Shown: positions 1-15,212 of the stretch, piece after piece
How the letters are laid out: the number at the start of each line of letters is the position of its first letter
Position numbering within the stretch: position 1 is the first letter of the stretch
Virus record (IMG/VR): IMGVR_UViG_2534681773_000018
Strand: one strand, 5' to 3'
Length of the DNA: 17,705 nucleotides
DNA from: a virus
Lineage: Duplodnaviria > Heunggongvirae > Uroviricota > Caudoviricetes
Program-made: the position numbers and the translations under genes
Notes under the pieces: generated by a model
What the model saw: only the letters and a program-made list of their open reading frames with translations
Database searches by the model: none
What the model was told of the DNA's origin: nothing

Positions 1-579
1 ATTGCACAGAATATGGCGGCGATGCTGACCGGCAGTGAGCAGAACTGGCGCAGCTTCACCCGTTCCGTGCTGTCCATGATGACAGAAATTCTGCTTAAGC
101 AGGCAATGGTGGGGATTGTCGGGAGTATCGGCAGCGCCATTGGCGGGGCTGTTGGTGGCGGCGCATCAGCGTCAGGAGGTACAGCCATTCAGGCTGCTGC
201 GGCGAAATTCCATTTTGCGACCGGGGGATTTACGGGAACCGGCGGCAAATATGAGCCAGCGGGGATTGTTCACCGTGGTGAATTTGTCTTCACGAAGGAG
301 GCAACCAGCCGGATTGGCGTGGGGAATCTCTACCGGCTGATGCGCGGCTATGCCACCGGTGGTTATGTCGGTACACCGGGCAGTCTGGCTGACAGCCGGT
401 CGCAGGCGTCCGGGACGTTTGAGCAGAATAACCATGTGGTGATTAACAACGACGGCACGAACGGGCAGATAGGTCCGGCTGCTCTGAAGGCGGTGTATGA
501 CATGGCCCGCAAGGGTGCCCGTGATGAAATTCAGACACAGATGCGTGATGGTGGCCTGTTCTCCGGAGGTGGACGATGA
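1..579 (+). CDS. H: Tail tape measure protein (lambda gpH-like), C-terminal part; 5' end lies outside the window
   Basis: Frame is open from position 1 with no upstream stop in the window; stop TGA 577-579 overlaps the ATG of the next gene (ATGA). Gly/Ala-rich C-terminus. Sits immediately upstream of the M-L-K-I-J block, as H does in lambda. Confidence 0.75.
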   Translation: MAQNMAAMLTGSEQNWRSFTRSVLSMMTEILLKQAMVGIVGSIGSAIGGAVGGGASASGGTAIQAAAAKFHFATGGFTGTGGKYEPAGIVHRGEFVFTKEATSRIGVGNLYRLMRGYATGGYVGTPGSLADSRSQASGTFEQNNHVVINNDGTNGQIGPAALKAVYDMARKGARDEIQTQMRDGGLFSGGGR

Positions 580-905
580 AGACCTTCCGCTGGAAAGTGA
601 AACCCGGTATGGATGTGGCTTCGGTCCCTTCTGTCAGGGAGGTGCGCTTTGGTGATGGCTATTCCCAGCGTGCGCCTGCCGGGCTGAACGCTGACCTGAA
701 AACGTACAGCGTGACGCTGTCTGTCTCCCGTGAGGAGGCCACGGCGCTGGAGTCGTTTCTGGCTGAGCACGGGGGCTGGAAGGCCTTTCTGTGGACGCCG
801 CCTTATGGTTACAGGCAGATAAAGGTGACCTGCGCAAAATGGTCGTCGCAGGTCAGTATGTTGCGTGTTGAGTTCAGCGCAGAGTTTAAACAGGTGGTGA
901 ACTGA
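576..905 (+). CDS. M: Minor tail protein M (lambda gpM-like), 109 aa
   Basis: ATG 576 overlaps the H stop. 109-aa product beginning MKTFRWKVKPGMDVASVP, same length as lambda gpM and near-identical to it as I recall it. Stop overlaps the L start (TGATG). Confidence 0.93.
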   Translation: MKTFRWKVKPGMDVASVPSVREVRFGDGYSQRAPAGLNADLKTYSVTLSVSREEATALESFLAEHGGWKAFLWTPPYGYRQIKVTCAKWSSQVSMLRVEFSAEFKQVVN

Positions 906-1603
906 TGCAGGATATCCGGCAGGAAACACTGAATGAATGCACCCGTGCGGAGCAGTCGGCCAGCGTGGTGCTCTGGGAAATCGATCTGACAGAGGTCGGT
1001 GGTGAACGTTATTTTTTCTGTAATGAGCAGAACGAAAAAGGTGAGCCGGTTACCTGGCAGGGGCGGCAGTATCAGGCATACCCCATTCAGGGGACAGGAT
1101 TTGAACTGAACGGCAAGGGCAGTGCTGCCCGTCCGACACTGACGGTTTCTAACCTGCACGGCATGGTCACGGGGATGGCGGAAGACCTGCAGAGTCTGGT
1201 CGGCGGAACGGTGGTCAGGCGTAAGGTTTACGCCCGTTTTCTGGATGCGGTGAACTTCGTCAACGGAAACAGTGACGCCGATCCGGAGCAGGAGGTGATC
1301 AGCCGCTGGCGCATCGAGCAGTGCAGCGAACTGAGCGCGGTGAGTGCCTCCTTTGTACTGTCCACGCCGACGGAAACGGATGGCGCTGTTTTTCCGGGAC
1401 GTATCATGCTGGCCAACACCTGCACCTGGACCTATCGCGGTGACGAGTGCGGTTATAGCGGTCCGGCTGTCGCGGATGAATATGACCAGCCAACGTCCGA
1501 TATCACGAAGGATAAATGCAGCAAATGCCTGAGCGGTTGTAAGTTCCGCAATAACGTCGGCAACTTTGGCGGCTTCCTTTCCATTAACAAACTTTCGCAG
1601 TAA
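905..1603 (+). CDS. L: Minor tail protein L (lambda gpL-like), 232 aa, with C-terminal Cys cluster
   Basis: 232-aa product beginning MQDIRQETLNECTRAEQSASVVLWEIDL, matching lambda gpL in length and sequence. C-terminal cysteines (CTWTYRGDECGYSG ... KCSKCLSGC) fit the reported Fe-S site of gpL. Confidence 0.93.
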   Translation: MQDIRQETLNECTRAEQSASVVLWEIDLTEVGGERYFFCNEQNEKGEPVTWQGRQYQAYPIQGTGFELNGKGSAARPTLTVSNLHGMVTGMAEDLQSLVGGTVVRRKVYARFLDAVNFVNGNSDADPEQEVISRWRIEQCSELSAVSASFVLSTPTETDGAVFPGRIMLANTCTWTYRGDECGYSGPAVADEYDQPTSDITKDKCSKCLSGCKFRNNVGNFGGFLSINKLSQ

Positions 1604-1608
1604 ATCCC

Positions 1609-2352
1609 ATGACACAGACAGAATCAGCGATTCTGGCGCACGCCCGGCGATGTGCGCCAGCGGAGTCGTGCGGCTTCGTGGTAAGCACGCCGGAGGGGGA
1701 AAGATATTTCCCCTGCGTGAATATCTCCGGTGAGCCGGAGGCGTATTTCCGTATGTCGCCGGAAGACTGGCTGCAGGCAGAAATGCAGGGGGAGATTGTG
1801 GCGCTGGTCCACAGCCACCCCGGTGGTCTGCCCTGGCTGAGTGAGGCCGACCGGCGGCTGCAGGTGCAGAGTGATTTGCCGTGGTGGCTGGTCTGCCGGG
1901 GTGAGATTCATAAGTTCCGCTGTGTGCCGCATCTCACCGGGCGGCGCTTTGAGCACGGTGTGACGGACTGTTACACACTGTTCCGGGATGCTTATCATCT
2001 GGCGGAGATTGAGATGCCGGATTTTGTGCGTGAGGATGACTGGTGGCGTAACGGTCAGAATCTCTATCTGGATAATCTGGAGGCCACAGGGCTGTATCAG
2101 GTGCCGTTGTCAGCGGCGCAGCCGGGCGATGTGCTGCTGTGCTGTTTTGGTTCATCGGTGCCGAATCACGCCGCTATTTACTGTGGTGACGGCGAGCTGC
2201 TGCACCATATTCCTGAACAACTGAGTAAACGGGAGAGGTATACCGACAAATGGCAGCGACGCACACACTCCCTCTGGCGTCACCGGGAATGGCACGCATC
2301 TGCCTTTACGGGGATTTGCAACGATTTGGCCGCCGCATCGACCTTCGTGTGA
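1609..2352 (+). CDS. K: Tail tip assembly protein K (lambda gpK-like): JAB/MPN (JAMM) domain plus NlpC/P60-like domain
   Basis: 247-aa ORF starting 6 nt after the L stop. Contains a JAMM-type motif HSHPGGLPWLSEAD (H-x-H-x7-S-x2-D) and a C-terminal region with Cys/His residues (GVTDCYTLF, PNHAAIYCGDGELLHH) typical of NlpC/P60. Its 3' end overlaps the I start by about 100 nt in another frame, as K and I do in lambda. Confidence 0.9.
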   Translation: MTQTESAILAHARRCAPAESCGFVVSTPEGERYFPCVNISGEPEAYFRMSPEDWLQAEMQGEIVALVHSHPGGLPWLSEADRRLQVQSDLPWWLVCRGEIHKFRCVPHLTGRRFEHGVTDCYTLFRDAYHLAEIEMPDFVREDDWWRNGQNLYLDNLEATGLYQVPLSAAQPGDVLLCCFGSSVPNHAAIYCGDGELLHHIPEQLSKRERYTDKWQRRTHSLWRHREWHASAFTGICNDLAAASTFV

Positions 2353-2921
2353 AAACGGGGGCTGAAGCCATCCGCGCACTGGCCACACAGCTCCCGGCGT
2401 TTCGTCAGAAACTGAGCGACGGCTGGTATCAGGTACGGATTGCCGGGCGGGACGTCAGCGCGTCCGGGTTAACGGCGCAGTTACATGAGACTCTGCCTGA
2501 CGGCGCTGTGATTCATATTGTTCCCAGAGTCGCCGGGGCCAAGTCAGGTGGCGTATTCCAGATTGTCCTGGGGGCTGCAGCCATTGCCGGATCATTCTTT
2601 ACCGCCGGAGCCACCCTTGCAGCATGGGGGGCAGCCATTGGGGCCGGTGGTATGACCGGCATCCTGTTTTCTCTCGGTGCCAGTATGGTGCTCGGTGGTG
2701 TGGCGCAGATGCTGGCACCGAAAGCCAGAACTCCCCGTACACAGACAACGGATAACGGTAAGCAGAACACCTATTTCTCCTCACTGGATAACATGGTTGC
2801 CCAGGGCAATGTTCTGCCTGTTCTGTACGGGGAAATGCGCGTGGGGTCTCGCGTGGTTTCTCAGGAGATCAGCACGGCAGACGAAGGGGATGGTGGTCAG
2901 GTTGTGGTGATTGGTCGCTGA
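2250..2921 (+). CDS. I: Tail tip assembly protein I (lambda gpI-like), 223 aa
   Basis: 223-aa product beginning MAATHTLPLASPGMARICLYGDLQRFGRRIDLRVKTG with a hydrophobic Gly/Ala-rich central segment, matching lambda gpI in length and sequence; position between K and J. Confidence 0.92.
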   Translation: MAATHTLPLASPGMARICLYGDLQRFGRRIDLRVKTGAEAIRALATQLPAFRQKLSDGWYQVRIAGRDVSASGLTAQLHETLPDGAVIHIVPRVAGAKSGGVFQIVLGAAAIAGSFFTAGATLAAWGAAIGAGGMTGILFSLGASMVLGGVAQMLAPKARTPRTQTTDNGKQNTYFSSLDNMVAQGNVLPVLYGEMRVGSRVVSQEISTADEGDGGQVVVIGR

Positions 2922-2937
2922 TGAAAAACGTTTATGT

Positions 2938-2962
2938 GAAACCGCCTGCGGGCGGTTTTGTC
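2938..2962 (+). other. Stem-loop in the I-J intergenic spacer (aaaccgcc-tgcg-ggcggtttt)
   Basis: Inverted repeat ccgcc / ggcgg with a 4-nt loop, followed by a short T-rich stretch, 20 nt upstream of the J ATG. Could be an attenuator or RNA-processing/translation-control structure; function not established. Confidence 0.3.
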
Positions 2963-2980
2963 GTTTATGGAGCGTGACGA

Positions 2981-5900
2981 ATGGGTAAAGGCAGCAGTAA
3001 GGGGCATACCCCGCGCGAAGCGAAGGACAACCTGAAGTCCACGCAGCTGCTGAGTGTGATCGATGCCATCAGCGAAGGGCCGATTGAAGGTCCGGTGGAT
3101 GGATTAAAAAGCGTGCTGCTGAACAGTACGCCGGTGCTGGACAGTGAGGGGAATACCAATATCTCCGGTGTCACGGTGGTGTTCCGGGCCGGTGAGCAGG
3201 AGCAGACACCGCCGGAGGGATTTGAATCCTCCGGCTCCGAGACGGTGCTGGGTACGGAAGTGAAATATGACACGCCGATCACCCGCACCATCACGTCGGC
3301 AAACATCGACCGTCTGCGCTTTACCTTCGGTGTGCAGGCACTGGTGGAAACCACCTCAAAGGGGGACAGGAATCCGTCGGAAGTCCGCCTGCTGGTTCAG
3401 ATACAGCGTAATGGTGGCTGGGTGACGGAAAAAGACATCACCATTAAGGGCAAAACCACCTCGCAGTATCTGGCCTCGGTGGTGGTGGATAACCTGCCGC
3501 CGCGCCCGTTCAATATCCGGATGCGCAGGATGACGCCGGACAGCACCACAGACCAGCTGCAGAACAAAACGCTCTGGTCGTCATACACCGAAATCATCGA
3601 TGTGAAACAGTGCTACCCGAACACGGCACTGGTCGGCGTACAGGTGGACTCGGAGCAGTTCGGCAGCCAGCAGGTGAGCCGTAATTATCATCTGCGCGGG
3701 CGTATTCTGCAGGTGCCGTCGAACTATAACCCGCAGACGCGGCAATACAGCGGTATCTGGGACGGAACGTTTAAACCAGCATACAGCAACAACATGGCCT
3801 GGTGTCTGTGGGATATGCTGACCCATCCGCGCTACGGCATGGGGAAACGTCTTGGTGCGGCGGATGTGGATAAATGGGCGCTGTATGTCATCGGCCAGAA
3901 TTGCGACCAGTCGGTGCCGGACGGCTTTGGCGGCACGGAGCCGCGCATCACCTGTAATGCCTGGCTGACCACACAGCGCAAGGCGTGGGATGTGCTCAGT
4001 GATTTCTGCTCGGCGATGCGCTGTATGCCGGTATGGAACGGGCAGACGCTGACGTTCGTGCAGGACCGACCATCAGATAAGGTGTGGACCTATAACCGCA
4101 GTAATGTGGTGATGCCGGATGATGGCGCGCCGTTCCGCTACAGCTTCAGCGCCCTGAAGGACCGCCATAATGCCGTTGAGGTGAACTGGATTGACCCGAA
4201 TAACGGCTGGGAGACGGCGACAGAGCTTGTGGAGGACACGCAGGCCATTGCCCGTTACGGTCGTAACGTCACGAAGATGGATGCCTTTGGCTGTACCAGC
4301 CGGGGGCAGGCACACCGCGCCGGGCTGTGGCTGATTAAAACAGAACTGCTGGAGACGCAGACCGTGGATTTCAGCGTGGGTGCTGAAGGGCTTCGCCATG
4401 TACCGGGCGATGTCATTGAAATCTGCGATGATGACTATGCCGGTATCAGCACCGGTGGGCGCGTGCTGGCGGTAAACAGCCAGACCCGGACGCTGACGCT
4501 CGACCGTGAAATCACGCCGCCATCCTCCGGTACCACGCTGATAAGCCTGGTTGACGGAAGTGGCAATCCGATCAGCGTGGAGGTTCAGTCCGTCACCGAC
4601 GGCGTGAAGGTGAAAGTGAGCCGTGTTCCTGACGGCGTTGCAGAATACAGTGTGTGGGGGCTGAAGTTGCCGACGTTGCGCCAGCGCCTGTTCCGCTGTG
4701 TGAGTATCCGTGAGAACGATGACGGCACGTATGCTATCACCGCCGTGCAGCATGTACCGGAAAAAGAAGCCATCGTGGATAACGGGGCGCACTTTGACGG
4801 CGACCAGAGCGGCACGGTGAATGGTGTCACGCCGCCAGCGGTGCAGCACCTGACTGCCGAAGTCACCGCAGACAGCGGGGAATATCAGGTGCTGGCGCGC
4901 TGGGACACACCGAAGGTGGTGAAGGGCGTGAGCTTCCTGCTCCGTCTGACCGTAACAGCGGACGACGGCAGTGAGCGGCTGGTCAGCACGGCCCGGACGA
5001 CGGAAACCACATACCGCTTCACACAACTGGCGTTGGGGAACTACAGGCTGACAGTCCGGGCGGTAAATGCGTGGGGACAGCAGGGCGATCCGGCATCGGT
5101 ATCGTTCCGGATTGCCGCACCGGCAGCGCCGTCTCGGATTGAGCTGACACCGGGCTATTTTCAGATAACCGCCACGCCGCATCTTGCGGTTTATGACCCG
5201 ACGGTACAGTTTGAGTTCTGGTTCTCGGAAAAACGGATTGCGGATATCAGGCAGGTTGAAACCAGCGCGCGTTATCTTGGTACGGCACTGTACTGGATAG
5301 CCGCCAGTATCAATATCAAACCGGGCCATGATTATTATTTTTACGTTCGCAGTGTGAACACCGTTGGCAAATCGGCATTCGTGGAGGCTGTCGGTCAGCC
5401 GAGTGATGATGCATCAGGCTATCTGGATTTTTTCAAAGGCGAGATAGGGAAAACCCATCTGGCTCAGGAGCTGTGGACGCAGATTGATAACGGTCAGCTT
5501 GCGCCTGACCTGACTGAAATCAGGACGTCCATAACGGATGTCAGCAATGAAATAACACAGACCGTCAATAAGAAACTGGAAGACCAGAGTGCAGCGATCC
5601 AGCAGATACAGAAGGTTCAGGTTGATACAAATAATAACCTGAACAGCATGTGGGCAGTGAAGCTGCAGCAGATGCAGGACGGACGCCTTTATATTGCGGG
5701 TATCGGTGCCGGTATTGAGAACACCCCTGACGGCATGCAGAGTCAGGTGCTGCTGGCAGCAGACAGGATTGCGATGATTAATCCTGCGAATGGCAACACA
5801 AAGCCGATGTTTGTTGGTCAGGGCGATCAGATATTCATGAATGAAGTGTTCCTGAAACGCCTGACGGCCCCCACCATTACCAGCGGCGGTAATCCTCCGG

Positions 5901-6478
5901 CATTTTCCCTGACATCAGACGGGAGACTGACGGCGAAAAATGCGGATATCAGTGGCAGTGTGAATGCGAACTCAGGAACGCTCAACAATGTCACGATTAA
6001 CCAGAACTGTACGATTAAGGGCATGCTGGAGGCGACCCAGGTCAGAGGAGATTTCGTTAAAGCTGTATCAAAAGCCTTCCCGAAAAAAGTCGGTACGTGG
6101 GGTAACACGGAAACACCAAACGGTACGGTTACAGTCACCATCAGCGATGATCATAACTTTGACCGCCAGATTATTATTCCGCCCATTATTTTTAACGGTA
6201 TAGCGTATGACGATCCGGGGAGCGGAAATAACCCAGGAGGCACGCGATACACGGGTTATGGTTTTGAAGTTCGCAAAAACGGCGTATTAATCGCATCCAG
6301 AGAAACTAAAGGGGCCATTCCCGGTAGTTACAGTGCAGTTATTGATATGCCGAGTGGCAGGGGAAGCGTCACTCTGGAGTTTAAGATTTTCCAGAAAGGC
6401 AATCAGGGGGCAGGCAATATCACCGACTGTACGGTGATTGTGACCAAAAAAGCCGCTTCCGGCATCAGTATTCGTTGA
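2981..6478 (+). CDS. J: Tail tip attachment / host specificity protein J (lambda gpJ-like), 1165 aa
   Basis: 1165-aa ORF beginning [54 protein letters not shown], matching the lambda gpJ N-terminal and central regions. The C-terminal third (receptor-binding region) differs from what I recall for lambda J. Immediately followed by an intrinsic terminator. Confidence 0.93.
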
Positions 6479-7212: not shown

Positions 7213-10107
7213 ATGGCAGTAAAGATTTCAGGTGTACTGAAAGACGGCACAGGAAAACCGGTACAGAACTGCACAATCCAGCTGAAAGCAAAACGTAACA
7301 GCACCACGGTGGTGGTGAACACGCTGGCCTCAGAAAATCCGGATGAAGCCGGGCGTTACAGCATGGACGTTGAGTACGGGCAGTACAGCGTTATTCTGTT
7401 GGTGGAGGGATTCCCGCCGTCACATGCCGGGACCATCACCGTGTATGAAGATTCCCGACCCGGTACGCTGAATGATTTTCTCGGTGCCATGACGGAGGAT
7501 GATGCCCGTCCTGAGGCACTGCGCCGTTTTGAACTGATGGTGGAAGAGGTGGCGCGTAACGCGTCCGCGGTGGCACAGAACACGGCAGCCGCGAAGAAGT
7601 CAGCCAGCGATGCCAGCACATCAGCCCGTGAGGCGGCAACCCATGCGACTGATGCTGCAGATTCAGCACGTGCAGCCAGCACGTCAGCCGGACAGGCCGC
7701 TTCGTCGGCTCAGTCAGCGTCTTCCAGCGCAGGAACGGCATCAACAAAGGCCACTGAAGCCTCAAAAAGTGCTGCCGCTGCAGAGTCCTCAAAAAGCGTG
7801 GCAGCTACCAGTGCCGGTGCGGCGAAAACGTCAGAAACGAATGCCGCAGCGTCAGAACAATCAGCCGCCACTTCTGCATCCACCGCGACCACGAAAGCGT
7901 CAGAAGCTGCCACCTCAGCCCGGGATGCGGCGGCCTCAAAAGAGGCAGCGAAATCATCAGAAACGAACGCATCCTTGAGCGCCAGTAGCGCAGCTTCCTC
8001 GGCAACGGCGGCAGGAAATTCCGCGAAGGCGGCAAAAACGTCCGAGACGAACGCCAGGTCTTCTGAGACGGCAGCGGGACAGAGCGCCTCAGCTGCGGCA
8101 GGCTCAAAAACAGCGGCTGCGTCGTCTGCCAGTGCCGCGTCAACAAGTGCCGGGCAGGCCTCAGCCAGTGCCACCGCCGCCGGAAAATCGGCAGAAAGCG
8201 CCGCATCATCCGCTTCAACAGCCACAACGAAGGCTGGCGAAGCCACTGAGCAGGCCACGGCAGCAGCGAGGTCAGCTTCCGCAGCGAAGACATCCGAAAC
8301 GAACGCGAAAGCGTCGGAAACCCGTGCAGAATCCTCAAAAACGGCAGCGGCATCGTCCGCCAGTTCGGCGGCGTCATCGGCATCATCGGCGTCTGCTTCA
8401 AAAGATGAGGCGACCAGACAGGCGTCAGCAGCGAAGGGCAGCGCCACGACGGCATCCACGAAGGCGACAGAGGCTGCTGGTAGTGCGAAGGCAGCAGCTC
8501 AGAGCAAAAGTACGGCGGAATCTGCAGCAACGCGCGCTGAGACAGCGGCAAAACGGGCAGAGGATATTGCATCCGCCGTGGCGCTTGAGGATGCGAGCAC
8601 GACGAAAAAGGGGATAGTACAGCTCAGTAGTGCGACTAACAGCACTTCCGAGTCACTGGCGGCAACGCCAAAGGCAGTAAAAGCAGCCAATGACAATGCT
8701 GAGAAACGTCTGCAGAAAGATCAGAACGGTGCGGATATCCCTGGCAAAGACACCTTTACGAAAAATATTGGTGCCTGCCGTGCCTTCGGTGGGTCAGTAA
8801 GCACAACAACAGGAAACTGGACGACTGCACAGTTTATCGAGTGGCTGGATTCTCAGGGAGCATTTAACCATCCATACTGGATGTGCAAGGGTTCCTGGTC
8901 TTATGGCAATAATAAAATCATTACTGATACTGGCTGCGGTAATATTCATCTCGCCGGAGCTGTCATTGAAGTAATGGGGATAAAGTCAGCGATGACGATC
9001 CGCATTACCACTCCGACCACATCCAGCGGTGGCGGAACAACCAACGCCCAGTTTACCTATATTAATCACGGAACAGATTATTCACCTGGCTGGCGAAGGG
9101 ACTATAACTCCAGAAATAAGCCAACGGCATCAGAGATCGGGGCGCTACCGTCAGGTGGAACAGCAGTATCATCAGTTAATCTGGCTTCAAAAGGTCGGGT
9201 AGCCGCGCTGACAGACAATACGCAGGGGGCAGCAGGTCTTGAGTTATACGAGGTGTATAACAACGGATATCCAACAACGTATGGAAATATCATTCACCTG
9301 AAAGGGATGACAGCCGTTGGCGAAGGTGAGTTACTCATCGGCTGGAGTGGTACAAGCGGTGCTCATGCTCCGGCATTTATTCGTTCACGACGGGATACGA
9401 CCGACGCAAACTGGTCGCCGTGGGCGCAGCTTTACACCTCGGCTCATCCTCCTGCAGAGTTTTATCCAGTCGGTGCACCAATCCCGTGGCCATCAGATAC
9501 CGTTCCGTCTGGTTATGTCCTGATGCAGGGGCAGACTTTTGACAAATCTGCATACCCGAAACTTGCAGCCGCTTATCCGTCAGGCGTGATCCCTGATATG
9601 CGTGGCTGGACGATTAAGGGCAAACCTGCCAGTGGTCGGGCCGTATTGTCTCAGGAACAGGACGGCATTAAATCGCACACCCACAGCGCCAGCGCATCCA
9701 GTACGGATTTGGGGACGAAAACCACATCGTCGTTTGATTACGGCACTAAATCCACGAATAACATCGGGGCGCATACGCACAGTGTGAGCGGTACAGCCGC
9801 AAGTGCCGGAAACCATACTCATAGTGTCACAGGCGCATCAGCAGTCAGCCAGTGGTCACAAAATGGGTCAGTACATAAGGTAGTGTCTGCGGCCAGTGTG
9901 AATACAAGTGCTGCAGGAGCGCACACTCATAGTGTCAGCGGCACAGCTGCATCTGCAGGTGCTCACGCACATACTGTCGGTATTGGTGCTCATACGCACT
10001 CGGTTGCGATTGGCTCACATGGACACACCATCACCGTTAACGCTGCTGGTAACGCGGAAAACACCGTCAAAAACATCGCATTTAACTATATTGTGAGGCT
10101 TGCATGA
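7213..10107 (+). CDS. stf: Side tail fibre protein (lambda Stf-like), about 964 aa from ATG 7213
   Basis: N-terminus [26 protein letters not shown] matches lambda Stf. The ORF track starts at GTG 7207, but ATG 7213 is preceded by a GGGG run and matches the lambda start. Long Ala/Ser/Thr-rich repetitive segment, a Cys/Trp-containing central domain, and a C-terminal region with repeated GAHxH motifs ending [11 protein letters not shown] as in lambda Stf. Confidence 0.9.
7560..8590 (+). repeat. Imperfect tandem coding repeats (Ala/Ser/Thr-rich, recurring AAKTSETNA / SASTATTKA units) inside stf
   Basis: Recurrent nucleotide motifs such as aaaacgtcagaaacgaatgc / aagacatccgaaacgaacgc and the corresponding peptide repeats. 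The region has few stop codons in any frame, which produces many overlapping alternative-frame ORFs in the track. Confidence 0.6.
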
Positions 10108-10394
10108 TTACGCTCATTCTTTCTGCACCAGTAACCGAAATGGCTGAAGCATTTAAGCGGGTATTTGCAAATGCAGATAATGTGAATATTGTCGGAAAGC
10201 CATTTGAAACAATCAGAGAATTTGACTGCATGGTAAGTGCGGCAAATAGTTTCGGCCTGATGGATGGCGGTGTTGATGCCGCCATTACCACATTCTTCGG
10301 TTCTCAGCTACAGGCCCGCGTTCAGAATCATATTCTTCGTGAATATCTCGGCGAGCAGCCTGTAGGTTCTGCATTTGTGATCCTACCCACGTAA
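10104..10394 (+). CDS. Macro-domain-like protein fragment (putative ADP-ribose binding/processing); 3' end truncated by IS3
   Basis: ATG 10104 overlaps the stf stop (ATGA), suggesting translational coupling. Product contains [21 protein letters not shown], resembling the macro-domain signature (VVNAAN...GGGV..AI). Visibly more AT-rich than stf. The frame runs into the IS3 terminal repeat (from 10378) and stops there, so the last few codons are IS-derived. Confidence 0.45.
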
Positions 10395-10407
10395 TATGGA
10401 CACAGGC

Positions 10408-11274
10408 CTAAGCGAGGTTCTGGTTTTCAAATTGTTCCGGACTGAGGCCGCCACACCAACTGTGCCGCCGCCACCGATTGTAATCACATTCGATATAATT
10501 AAACACCGTTGCCCGCATTATTTCCCGGCTGATAAAGTGTTCTCCATGGATACATTCCACTTTCAGCGAATGAAAGAAGCTTTCCACGCAGGCATTATCG
10601 TAGCAGCAACCTTTTGCGCTCATACTTCCACGCAGATTATGCCGCTTCAGTTGCGCCTGATAATCTGCTGAACAGTACTGGCCTCCACGGTCCGTGTGAA
10701 CGATAACGTTCCGGGGCCTCTTACGCCGCCACAGCGCCATCTGCAGGGCATCGCAGGCCAGTTGCGCCGTCATGCGTGGCGACATTGACCAGCCAATAAC
10801 GGCACGTGACCACAGGTCAATGACCACTGCCAGATACAGCCAGCCTTCATCTGTACGTAAGTACGTGATGTCTCCTGCCCACTTCTGGTTCGGGCCACTG
10901 GCGTAAAAATCCTGCTCCAACAGATTTTCTGACACAGGCAGGCCGTGTGCGCGGTAGCTGACCGGGCTGAACTTCCGGGAGGCCTTTGCCCTCAGTCCCT
11001 GACGGCGCAGGCTTGCCGCCACGGTTTTTACGTTAAAGGGGTAACCCTGAGCACGCAGTTCATCCGTCAGGCGTGGGGCACCGTAACGCTGTTTTGACCG
11101 GGTAAAAGCCGCGAGGACAACGCTGTCGCAGTGTTGGCGGAACTGCTGACGCGTGCTTATCCTTGTCCGCCGCTGACACCACGTATACCAGCCGCTGCGG
11201 GCCACCCGGAGCACGCGGCACATTGCTTTGATGCTGAACTCAGCCTGATGTTTTTCAATAAAGACATACTTCAT
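10408..11274 (-). CDS. insF: IS3 transposase OrfB (DDE integrase-like catalytic domain), 288 aa
   Basis: 288-aa ORF beginning [36 protein letters not shown], recognisable as the IS3 OrfB/InsF sequence. ATG 11272-11274 overlaps the orfA stop in the -1 arrangement typical of the IS3 family. Confidence 0.9.
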
Positions 11275-11569
11275 TTCAGGCGCTTCGCGAAGTATGTCGC
11301 GGCCTTTTGGAGGATAGCCAGCTCTTCATCCCGTTCTGCCAGCTGGCGTTTGAGACGTGCAATCTCGGTAGACATCTCCAGTTCACGTTCAGAAGACGTC
11401 TGCTGATTTTGCTGTTTACTGCGCCAGTTGTAGAGCTGTGATTCATACAGGCTGAGTTCACGGGCTGCGGCAGTAACACCGATGCGTTCAGCAAGCTTCA
11501 GGGCTTCACTGCGAAATTCAGGCGAATGCTGTTTACGGGGTTTTTACTGGTTGATACTGTTTTTGTCAT
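11271..11569 (-). pseudogene. insE: IS3 orfA (InsE-like HTH protein); reading frame appears interrupted in this copy
   Basis: ATG at 11567-11569 opens the expected MTKTVSTSK start and the C-terminal segment ([37 protein letters not shown]) is readable in the frame ending at 11271-11273. No intact ORF joins them in the track: the span is 299 nt (not a multiple of 3) and my hand translation hits an early stop after about 20 codons. Base-level details here are uncertain. Confidence 0.5.
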
Positions 11570-11634
11570 GTGAGTCACCTCTGACTGAGAGTTTACTCAC
11601 TTAGCCGCGTGTCCACTATTGCTGGGTAAGATCA

Positions 11635-11857
11635 CCGGGCAGGTCTGTATTAACCCTGAACATCAGGCTGATGATGTACTGATACAACATCAGGCTAATA
11701 ACCGGTTTCGCCCTGGTTCGCATATACACCGGATTAATCCAGAAAATCCTGTAGGTAATGTCATCTCTGGCGCACATAGCCACGGAAGTAGCATCGTTAT
11801 TGGTGCTCACACCCATACGCTCAATAAACAATATTCTGTCTCTGATATTAAGTAGAG
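11635..11857 (+). pseudogene. 3' remnant of a second tail fibre gene (His-rich GAHxH C-terminal repeat region), truncated at the IS3 boundary
   Basis: The frame entering from the IS3 end encodes ...[30 protein letters not shown] and stops 8 nt before the tfa start. It resembles, but is not identical to, the GAHTHSV.../[16 protein letters not shown] repeats at the stf C-terminus. It sits where a fibre gene 3' end is expected, directly upstream of tfa. Confidence 0.45.
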
Positions 11858-11863
11858 GTGAAC

Positions 11864-12439
11864 ATGGATTTCAGAATGAGTGAACAACCACGGACCATAA
11901 CAATTTATAATCTGCTGGCCGGAACTAATGAATTTATTGGTGAAGGTGACGCATACATTCCGCCTCATACAGGTCTGCCAGCAAACAGTACCGATATTGC
12001 ACCGCCAGATATTCCGGCTGGTTTCGTGGCTGTTTTCAACAGTGATGAGTCATCGTGGCATCTCGTTGAAGATCATCGGGGTAAAACGGTTTATGACGTG
12101 GCTTCCGGCGACGCGTTATTTATTTCTGAACTCGGCTCATTACCGGAAAATGTCACCTGGTTATCCCCGGAAGGGGAGTTTCAGAAGTGGAACGGCACAG
12201 CCTGGGTGAAGGATACGGAAGCAGAAAAACTGTTCCGGATCCGGGAGGCGGAAGAAACAAAAAACAGCCTGATGCAGGTAGCCAGTGAGCATATAGCGCC
12301 GCTTCAGGATGCTGTGGATCTGGAGATCGCAACGGAGAAAGAAACCTTGTTGCTGGAAGCCTGGAAAAAGTATCGGGTGTTGCTGAACCGTGTTGATACA
12401 TCAACTGCACCGGATATTGAATGGCCAGCCCTACCGTAG
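11864..12439 (+). CDS. tfa: Tail fibre assembly protein (lambda Tfa-like), about 191 aa from ATG 11864
   Basis: Product [62 protein letters not shown] ... [45 protein letters not shown] closely matches lambda Tfa. GAGGTG ribosome-binding site about 5 nt upstream of ATG 11864 (the ORF track starts at GTG 11858). Confidence 0.9.
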
Positions 12440-12515: not shown

Positions 12516-12540
12516 AATCTCACACCGAGATTATTTTTAT
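12516..12540 (+). terminator. Weak hairpin plus T-run between the convergent tfa and invertase genes (possible terminator)
   Basis: aatctc (12516-12521) / gagatt (12527-12532) with loop acacc, followed by atttttat. The stem is short and AT-rich and overlaps the invertase stop codon. Confidence 0.25.
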
Positions 12541-13127
12541 ATATCAGGTGTCTGATTTTTTGCTTTAGCTCTTAAAATGGTTTGCCGCGAGGTTTTGAAT
12601 TCTTGGGCAATGTCACTTATATTTATACCTGACTTAATTTGCTCTAGTACCCTCTGTATTTGTTCATCATTTAACACAGGTGGGCGACCAAATCGCTTTC
12701 CTGCGCCCCGTGCTCTTAATATCCCTGAATGAGTACGCTCAAGTAAAAGGTCTCGCTCAAATTCAGCGACTGCTGAAATTACTTGCATCATCATTTTTCC
12801 AGGTGGACTGGTCAGGTCAACGCCCCCCAATGCTAAGCAATGCACTTTGATACCTGCTTTGGTCAGTTGTTCCACCGTTTTACTGATATCCATTGGATTA
12901 CAACCGAGGCGATCCAGTTTTGTGACAATCAATGCATCACCTCTTTTCAGTCGATCAAGCAACTGGTTAAAACCAGGACGCTCACTGGTTGCTGCTGAGC
13001 CGCTAATTTGTTCTTCAATTATTTGCTGAGATTTGATGTTAAAACCTGCACTTTCGATTTCCCGACGTTGATTTTTGGTTGTCTTTTCCAGAGTTGATAC
13101 CCGACAGTAAGCATAAATTCGAGACAT
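12537..13127 (-). CDS. Serine recombinase, Gin/Hin/Pin/Cin-type DNA invertase (resolvase/invertase family), 196 aa
   Basis: N-terminal catalytic motif YAYCRVST (active-site Ser), conserved [19 protein letters not shown] and GRPP motifs, and a C-terminal HTH-like tail. It aligns along its length with Gin/Hin as I recall them. Located next to tail-fibre/tfa genes, as pin, gin and cin are. Confidence 0.85.
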
Positions 13128-14951: not shown

Positions 14952-15212
14952 ATGCTGCCGCAGCATAGCGATATTGAAATAGCCTGGTATGCTTCAATAC
15001 AGCAGGAGCCGAATAGCTGGAAGACCGTCACCACACAGTTCTACATCCAGGAATTCAGTGAGTATATTGCGCCACTGCAGGATGCTGTAGATCTGGAAAT
15101 CGCAACGGAGGAAGAAAGATCGTTGCTGGAAGCCTGAAAAAAGTATCGGGTGCTGCTAAACCGTGTGGACACTTCCGTAGCACCAGATATCGAGTGGCTT
15201 ATTCAACCATAA
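14952..15212 (+). pseudogene. tfaX: Tail fibre assembly gene remnant (tfaX-like): tfa C-terminal homology interrupted by an in-frame stop
   Basis: A 61-aa ORF ends at TGA 15135-15137 in the context EAWKKY (TGG to TGA relative to the intact tfa at 12360). The same frame continues [24 protein letters not shown] to TAA 15210-15212. The 3' roughly 140 nt is a diverged direct repeat of the tfa 3' end (12291-12431). Confidence 0.65.

Follow-up and report, generated by a model that had tools for sequence, protein, structure and literature searches.

The transposase of IS3 is known to yield adjacent deletions of varied length, and more of them when OrfAB is overproduced (PMC8860574). Adjacent deletions by IS3 are also credited to Sekine 1994, as that work is cited in PMC8860574 and PMC11708052. 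[quoted passage not shown] The IS3-associated deletion that we describe here is of this well-known, common and routine class.

The window, by which we mean the whole stretch of 17,705 nucleotides that was analysed, is identical to the start of NCBI record AIGZ01000006.1 (GCA_000250195.2), a draft assembly. The prophage is lambdoid and occupies the DLP12/appY-ompT locus of E. coli DEC11D/E. The features of the locus are collected in Table 1, in which L001 designates the reference locus with the IS-less allele, where the intact macro gene occupies L001 2605-3507. The stop codon of stf overlaps the start of the macro gene (ATGA). The stf product has 966 aa in the window versus 1008 aa in loci L009 and L010, which have the left IS3 junction in common with the window, and in the closest relatives without the IS, and this difference is made up of a 126-bp length change and about 20 substitutions in the fibre-repeat region (window ~8607-8694). 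The Pin-type invertase comes after a single tfa, and a second inverted fibre/tfa cassette is not obvious. A short tfa-like remnant is found at 14952-15137, ahead of appY and ompT (DLP12-type locus).

Table 1. Coordinates of the features at the disrupted macro gene and around it (window positions)
Feature	Position	Strand	Evidence or remarks
stf (side tail fibre), 966 aa	7207..10107	+	Pfam phage_tail_N, Collar, Phage_fiber; annotated 'phage tail protein' in relatives
Macro gene 5' remnant, codons 1-91	10104..10377	+	100% identical to L001 2605-2878; Pfam Macro
IS3	10378..11634	- (transposase strand)	1257 bp; 99.8-100% full-length identity to annotated IS3 copies
IS3 right inverted repeat, orfB-distal, starts TGATCC	10378..10416	.	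Inverted-repeat pair; end matches other IS3 copies
IS3 orfB, 288 aa, DDE/rve catalytic domain, intact	10408..11274	-	Pfam rve, rve_2, HTH_21
IS3 orfA, inactivated	11276..11569	-	ATG at 11569, stop at 11498 after 23 aa; translation and alignment
T5 run (A5 on the coding strand; six bases in intact IS3)	11541..11545	.	1-nt deletion, frameshifts orfA
IS3 left inverted repeat, orfA-proximal, ends ...AAGATCA	11596..11634	.	Inverted-repeat pair and copy alignment
Macro gene 3' remnant, 2 nt of codon 228, codons 229-300 and stop	11635..11855	+	Identical to L001 3287-3507
tfa (tail fibre assembly)	11864..12439	+	Pfam Caudo_TAP; tail fiber assembly protein in relatives; alternative GTG start at 11858
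Pin-type serine recombinase (context, outside the event)	12537..13127	-	Pfam Resolvase, HTH_7

The identity of the element as IS3 of E. coli (IS3 family, IS3 group) is clear from its matches, as 4,537 records contained an IS3 match at 80% query coverage or more, the best at 100% and 99.9% identity. Direct alignment with three intact copies of 1258 bp placed the ends at TGATCCTACCC... (position 10378) and ...GGGTAAGATCA (position 11634), exactly where a reading of this DNA from its sequence only had put them, and the same ends, of the TG...CA type, are found in 12 other IS3 copies. The terminal inverted repeats are imperfect and about 39 nt long, with arms at 10377/8-10416 and 11596-11634/5 that are 73% complementary. 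The window copy differs from the three intact copies by 1-2 SNPs and one indel, and this one-base indel is the sole difference in length from the canonical 1258 bp. The arrangement of orfA and orfB, from which IS3 makes OrfAB by frameshifting between the 0 and -1 frames, is kept and orfB is intact with its rve domains; orfA is broken. The missing nucleotide falls in an A6 run at orfA codons 9-10, and because the frameshift brings in a stop after 23 aa, neither OrfA nor the OrfAB transposase is predicted to be made. From its reading frames, the window IS3 would therefore be transposase-dead.

The same frameshifted 1257-bp allele, 100% identical, is present at an unrelated locus in the complete genomes of strains 90-3040 and 2013C-3492, where it is also without a duplication; the junction ORF of that locus was found on 74 contigs. 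The presence of the frameshifted element at two unrelated loci means either that slippage has recurred or that a dead copy was mobilised in trans.

The flanks of the window IS3 read ...GCATTTG on the left and CCGGGC... on the right (CCGGGCAGG...), and a direct repeat of 3 bp (or 4 bp) was sought at the boundaries of the element without any being found. The absence of a target-site duplication, with TTG facing CCG, had already been remarked upon from the sequence, and our controls bear it out: the same boundary rule applied to four other IS3 copies (L004, L005, L015 and L016) recovered GTG/GTG, TAC/TAC, AGC/AGC and ATC/ATC. These perfect duplications mean that the absence at the window IS3 is not a boundary error. 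A mismatch between two triplets means nothing when taken alone, because random triplets differ in 63 of 64 cases. The decisive evidence is instead the comparison with the IS-less allele, in which the two flanks lie 408 bp apart.

To see how often IS3 copies carry a duplication, a small set from complete genomes was sampled (L003-L005 and L012-L020), picked from the best matches and therefore not random. Within this set the duplication was absent from 9 of 13 copies and present in 4, and both copies examined in strain 90-3040 were without one. Since so many of the sampled copies have no duplication, the 3-bp repeat is the mark of a fresh insertion and is no test of the identity of the element. 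From these few copies, IS3-associated rearrangement appears to be the rule more than the exception, especially in prophages.

The IS-less allele is well represented. At least nine complete E. coli genomes (C5, C8, STEC434, HY220605 and others) contain the same prophage segment without the IS at 99.9-100% identity, in the gene order stf, macro gene (903 bp, 300 aa, annotated 'macro domain-containing protein'), tfa, Pin-type recombinase and ydfK. Compared with these relatives, the left flank in the window can be followed up to L001 2878 and the right flank picks up again at L001 3287, so that 408 bp (L001 2879-3286) are missing; L001 2879 is a T, which coincides with the first T of IS3. The retained 274 and 221 bp have 0 mismatches to the IS-free allele. 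The missing sequence, which could be reconstructed by comparison with the related prophages, corresponds to 136 in-frame codons (aa 92-227) and to most of the Macro domain. A search of the rest of the window for the deleted segment and for further IS3 sequence found neither. As judged from these alignments, an IS3-associated deletion of 408 bp within one macro-domain gene is confirmed. Neither 3-bp repeats around the element nor relatives with the two flanks contiguous and nothing missing were found.

It is because of this deletion that the window IS3 is without a duplication. Two other ways of arriving at the present boundaries were considered and rejected. Decay of a duplication by point mutation does not account for flanks that the reference allele separates by 408 bp, and had IS3 inserted into an allele from which the 408 bp were already missing, a duplication would be present.

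The left flank was correctly recognised from the sequence as a macro-like ORF, being the 5' part of a Macro-domain gene (PF01661). In an intact relative the Pfam Macro match covers aa 44-169 at 68.6 bits (cut-off 22), and the 5' remnant in the window still gives a match of 29.8 bits. Its reading frame enters IS3 for 5 codons and stops at 10394, giving a 96-aa junction ORF. The macro gene is destroyed by the IS3 together with the deletion, and tfa is now preceded by a 1.26-kb insert in the opposite orientation.

The right flank was a different matter. The sequence-only reading had taken it for the remnant of a different fibre gene and had placed the IS3 at a junction between two tail-fibre modules, on the view that the macro gene had lost its 3' part and a second fibre gene its 5' part, and that this explained the separation of stf from tfa. 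There is some basis for this in the 73-aa reading frame of the right flank, which contains two GAHSH/GAHTH-type motifs resembling the Phage_fiber repeats of Stf (E ~0.005, in a database of 3 sequences), and it was probably these motifs that prompted the idea of a fibre remnant. In the IS-less relatives, nevertheless, the identical sequence forms the 3' end of the 300-aa macro gene: the right flank consists of the last 73 codons of the same gene, with 0 mismatches. In these relatives stf, macro gene and tfa are contiguous, with a complete stf 3' end upstream, and the macro gene is uninterrupted in 127 of the 128 complete genomes that carry it. We therefore give practically no credence to a junction of two modules. 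Both flanks belong to one macro gene. The proposal of a loss mediated by IS3 stands in so far as a deletion is found beside the element; it fails in that no second fibre gene was lost, the loss being internal to the macro gene. Nor does the IS3 account for the break between stf and tfa, since the macro gene lies between them in all of the IS-less relatives.

The carriers of the macro gene amount to 128 of 5,426 complete E. coli genomes, and in all 127 intact carriers the gene occupies the stretch from the stf stop to the tfa start. Among the places of the gene in the 5,426 genomes, 22 are on plasmids. In a prophage of strain 6409, stf abuts tfaQ; when this prophage is aligned to L001, its stf 3' end matches on one side of the macro gene and its tfa on the other, so that relative to this arrangement the macro gene is a clean insert of about 906 bp. 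The 300-aa protein has its Macro domain in the N-terminal part and the GAHSH/GAHTH fibre-like repeats in a C-terminal tail, and it matches PHROG 2613. It could be a putative ADP-ribose-binding protein or hydrolase that is fibre-associated or Tfa-dependent. Homologues with 63-84% aa identity are found in the same place beside a fibre gene in Gifsy-1, in the Salmonella phages SEN4/SEN5 and in Escherichia phage Chuche; these copies are intact, unlike the disrupted copy in the window.

A second disruption of the same gene was found in E. coli ST2350 (NZ_CP031321.1; L002 3286-4543), where an IS3-family element is inserted with its transposase on the same strand. This element has 1258 bp and ends in TGTAGTGG...CCACTACA; OrfB shares 32.5% identity with its IS3 counterpart, there is no nucleotide match to IS3, and the element looks IS911-like. 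Unlike the window IS3, it is a simple insertion with an intact CGT duplication and no deletion. The CGT duplication (L001 3283-3285) is 1 bp from the right junction of the window IS3 at L001 3286/3287 (window ~11631-11634/11635), so that in the two disrupted macro alleles known here, that of DEC11 with IS3 and that of ST2350, the junctions are 1-4 bp apart. By chance, either of the window junctions would fall within 4 bp of the ST2350 insertion in a 903-bp gene in roughly 2% of cases, which is a hint of a preferred target. A search of the deletion end points for sequences like the inverted repeats, or for homology, against the ends of IS3 and of the ST2350 element gave nothing above chance. 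Unrelated IS3-family transposases might share a target hot spot around codon 228, or inactivation of the macro gene might have been favoured by selection repeatedly, but we put this forward only as a long shot.

As to how the deletion came about, we hold it moderately probable that IS3 inserted at either of the two junctions seen today, with a duplication, and that an intramolecular, transposase-mediated adjacent deletion followed. The insertion would have been an ordinary one with a 3-bp duplication, either at TTG (codon 91/92) or at CCG (codon 228/229). OrfAB would then have joined one end of the IS to a nearby site on the same DNA molecule (intramolecular transposition, or 'adjacent deletion'), and the product would lack the 408 bp as well as one of the two duplicated triplets, with IS3 itself kept intact. 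Before or after the deletion, a 1-nt slip in the A6 run of orfA would have killed the element's own transposase and fixed the structure. Since the copy now appears transposase-dead, the deletion would either predate the frameshift or have used a transposase supplied in trans by another copy.

Other IS3 copies in our sample point to histories of this kind. L018 has the left flank of L015, the copy with AGC on both sides, and a different right flank; L012 and L013 have the right flank in common and differ on the left. These pairs show the same kind of history in progress, and L015/L018 is a natural example of the pathway of insertion followed by deletion.

The simple insertion that should have preceded the deletion would be recognised by the predicted ancestral junctions, IS3-IRL followed by TTGTTATTGAAACGG, and GCTCACGTTCCG followed by IS3-IRR (TGATCCTACC). 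Such a junction at TTG or at CCG was absent from the 5,426 complete genomes, in which the DEC11 lineage is thinly sampled. The junction ORFs predicted for the ancestral intermediates, and for intermediates with two copies, were likewise absent from a collection of 15 billion proteins, with the exception of a 192-aa macro fragment starting at M109 (P0001) that is present on 8 contigs and that any 5' truncation could yield.

The failure to find an intermediate with a duplication, whether in the 5,426 genomes, the GTDB representatives, the metagenome contigs or the junction-ORF look-ups, is what would be expected if there had never been one. In that case the ends of an excised IS3 circle would have integrated non-concertedly 408 bp apart, or the IS would have been captured at a double-strand break, and movements of IS without duplication, tied to deletions or duplications, have indeed been proposed (PMC11708052). 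Yet a missing intermediate is weak evidence when the sampling is sparse, and every IS-plus-deletion event of the IS3-family element IS150 in the LTEE was traced to an earlier simple insertion (PMC11708052). We consider such a one-step origin improbable.

Somewhat better placed, although still unlikely, is an origin from two IS3 insertions in the same orientation, 408 bp apart and with their own duplications of TTG and CCG, between which RecA-dependent recombination would have removed one copy and the interval. On the L001 coordinates this gives exactly the present product, in which the left flank stems from one copy and the right flank from the other, and recombination between IS copies is a recognised source of copies without a duplication (PMC11708052). 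The right junction is moreover at the site hit by another IS3-family element, which makes a primary insertion there plausible. Against it, two hits in the same orientation within one 903-bp gene are required, neither of the inner junctions was found in the 5,426 genomes, and the ORFs predicted for an IS-flanked 408-bp segment were absent from the 15-billion-protein collection. Two insertions are also less parsimonious than a single insertion followed by deletion. As far as sequence alone goes, the present structure would fit a two-step adjacent deletion, two insertions with recombination, and a one-step insertion-deletion, and it cannot separate them; our preference for insertion followed by adjacent deletion is to be read with this in mind.

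The distribution of the allele shows that it is inherited. Neither junction was found in the 5,426 complete E. coli genomes, the GTDB representative genomes or the metagenome contigs that were scanned. An exact look-up of the 96-aa junction ORF gave five contigs, and on record this ORF belongs to E. coli DEC11D and DEC11E. The sister assembly AIGY01000032.1 (L008) has both junctions and the identical orfA frameshift; this and the window source, the two assemblies that span the IS3, are both drafts, in which the interior of the IS could be filled from other IS3 copies. The left junction is also present in GCA_902842175.1 and in two ENA metagenome contigs (ERZ27227496 and ERZ27254721), all three with the longer stf variant of 1008 aa and all three ending inside IS3. 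With both junctions in the sister assembly and the left one in three further samples, the deletion allele is inherited by several isolates and is neither a one-off error nor brand new.

The comparison of AIGY01000032.1 with the window also gave 172 substitutions, all confined to positions 1-6000; the two are identical from about 6000 on, including the IS3. The substitutions lie in tail genes (M, L, K, I and J) and mark a tract of recombination between very close relatives.

An assembly artefact has to be weighed at this point, in which IS3 copies were collapsed or mis-joined and the two junctions do not surround one real copy of the IS. The window source is a draft, and the three remaining left-junction contigs stop within the IS, as is usual for repeats. 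A random mis-join, however, would not give flanks that come from one gene, agree in orientation and are 408 bp apart, and two separate assemblies have the identical structure with the same IS allele. In addition, the 408-bp segment is absent from the window and no IS-flanked ORF of this segment is on record. An artefact is in our opinion very improbable, and we retain a real IS3 insertion with a deletion at its side.

The main consequence of this work is a corrected annotation of the locus, in which a single accessory gene with a macro domain is disrupted and there is no chimeric junction of fibre genes; it has little import beyond annotation. The allele does offer a clean natural case in which an in-frame deletion arose in association with IS3 and was later locked in place when the element's own transposase suffered a frameshift, and it can serve as a lineage marker for DEC11-type strains. 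The macro gene, which is conserved and wedged between stf and tfa in numerous prophages, together with the possible hot spot for IS3-family elements, may merit more attention than the IS3 itself.

Taken with the known systems, the window allele resembles the deletions made by IS3 on plasmids (Sekine et al. 1994; Kanai et al. 2022, PMC8860574) and those associated with IS150 in the LTEE (PMC11708052): an intact IS is kept, the stretch abutting one of its ends is lost, and there is neither a duplication nor homology at the end points. Unlike the plasmid and LTEE cases, the allele described here is natural and inherited, it affects an accessory gene of a prophage, and the order of its events is inferred.
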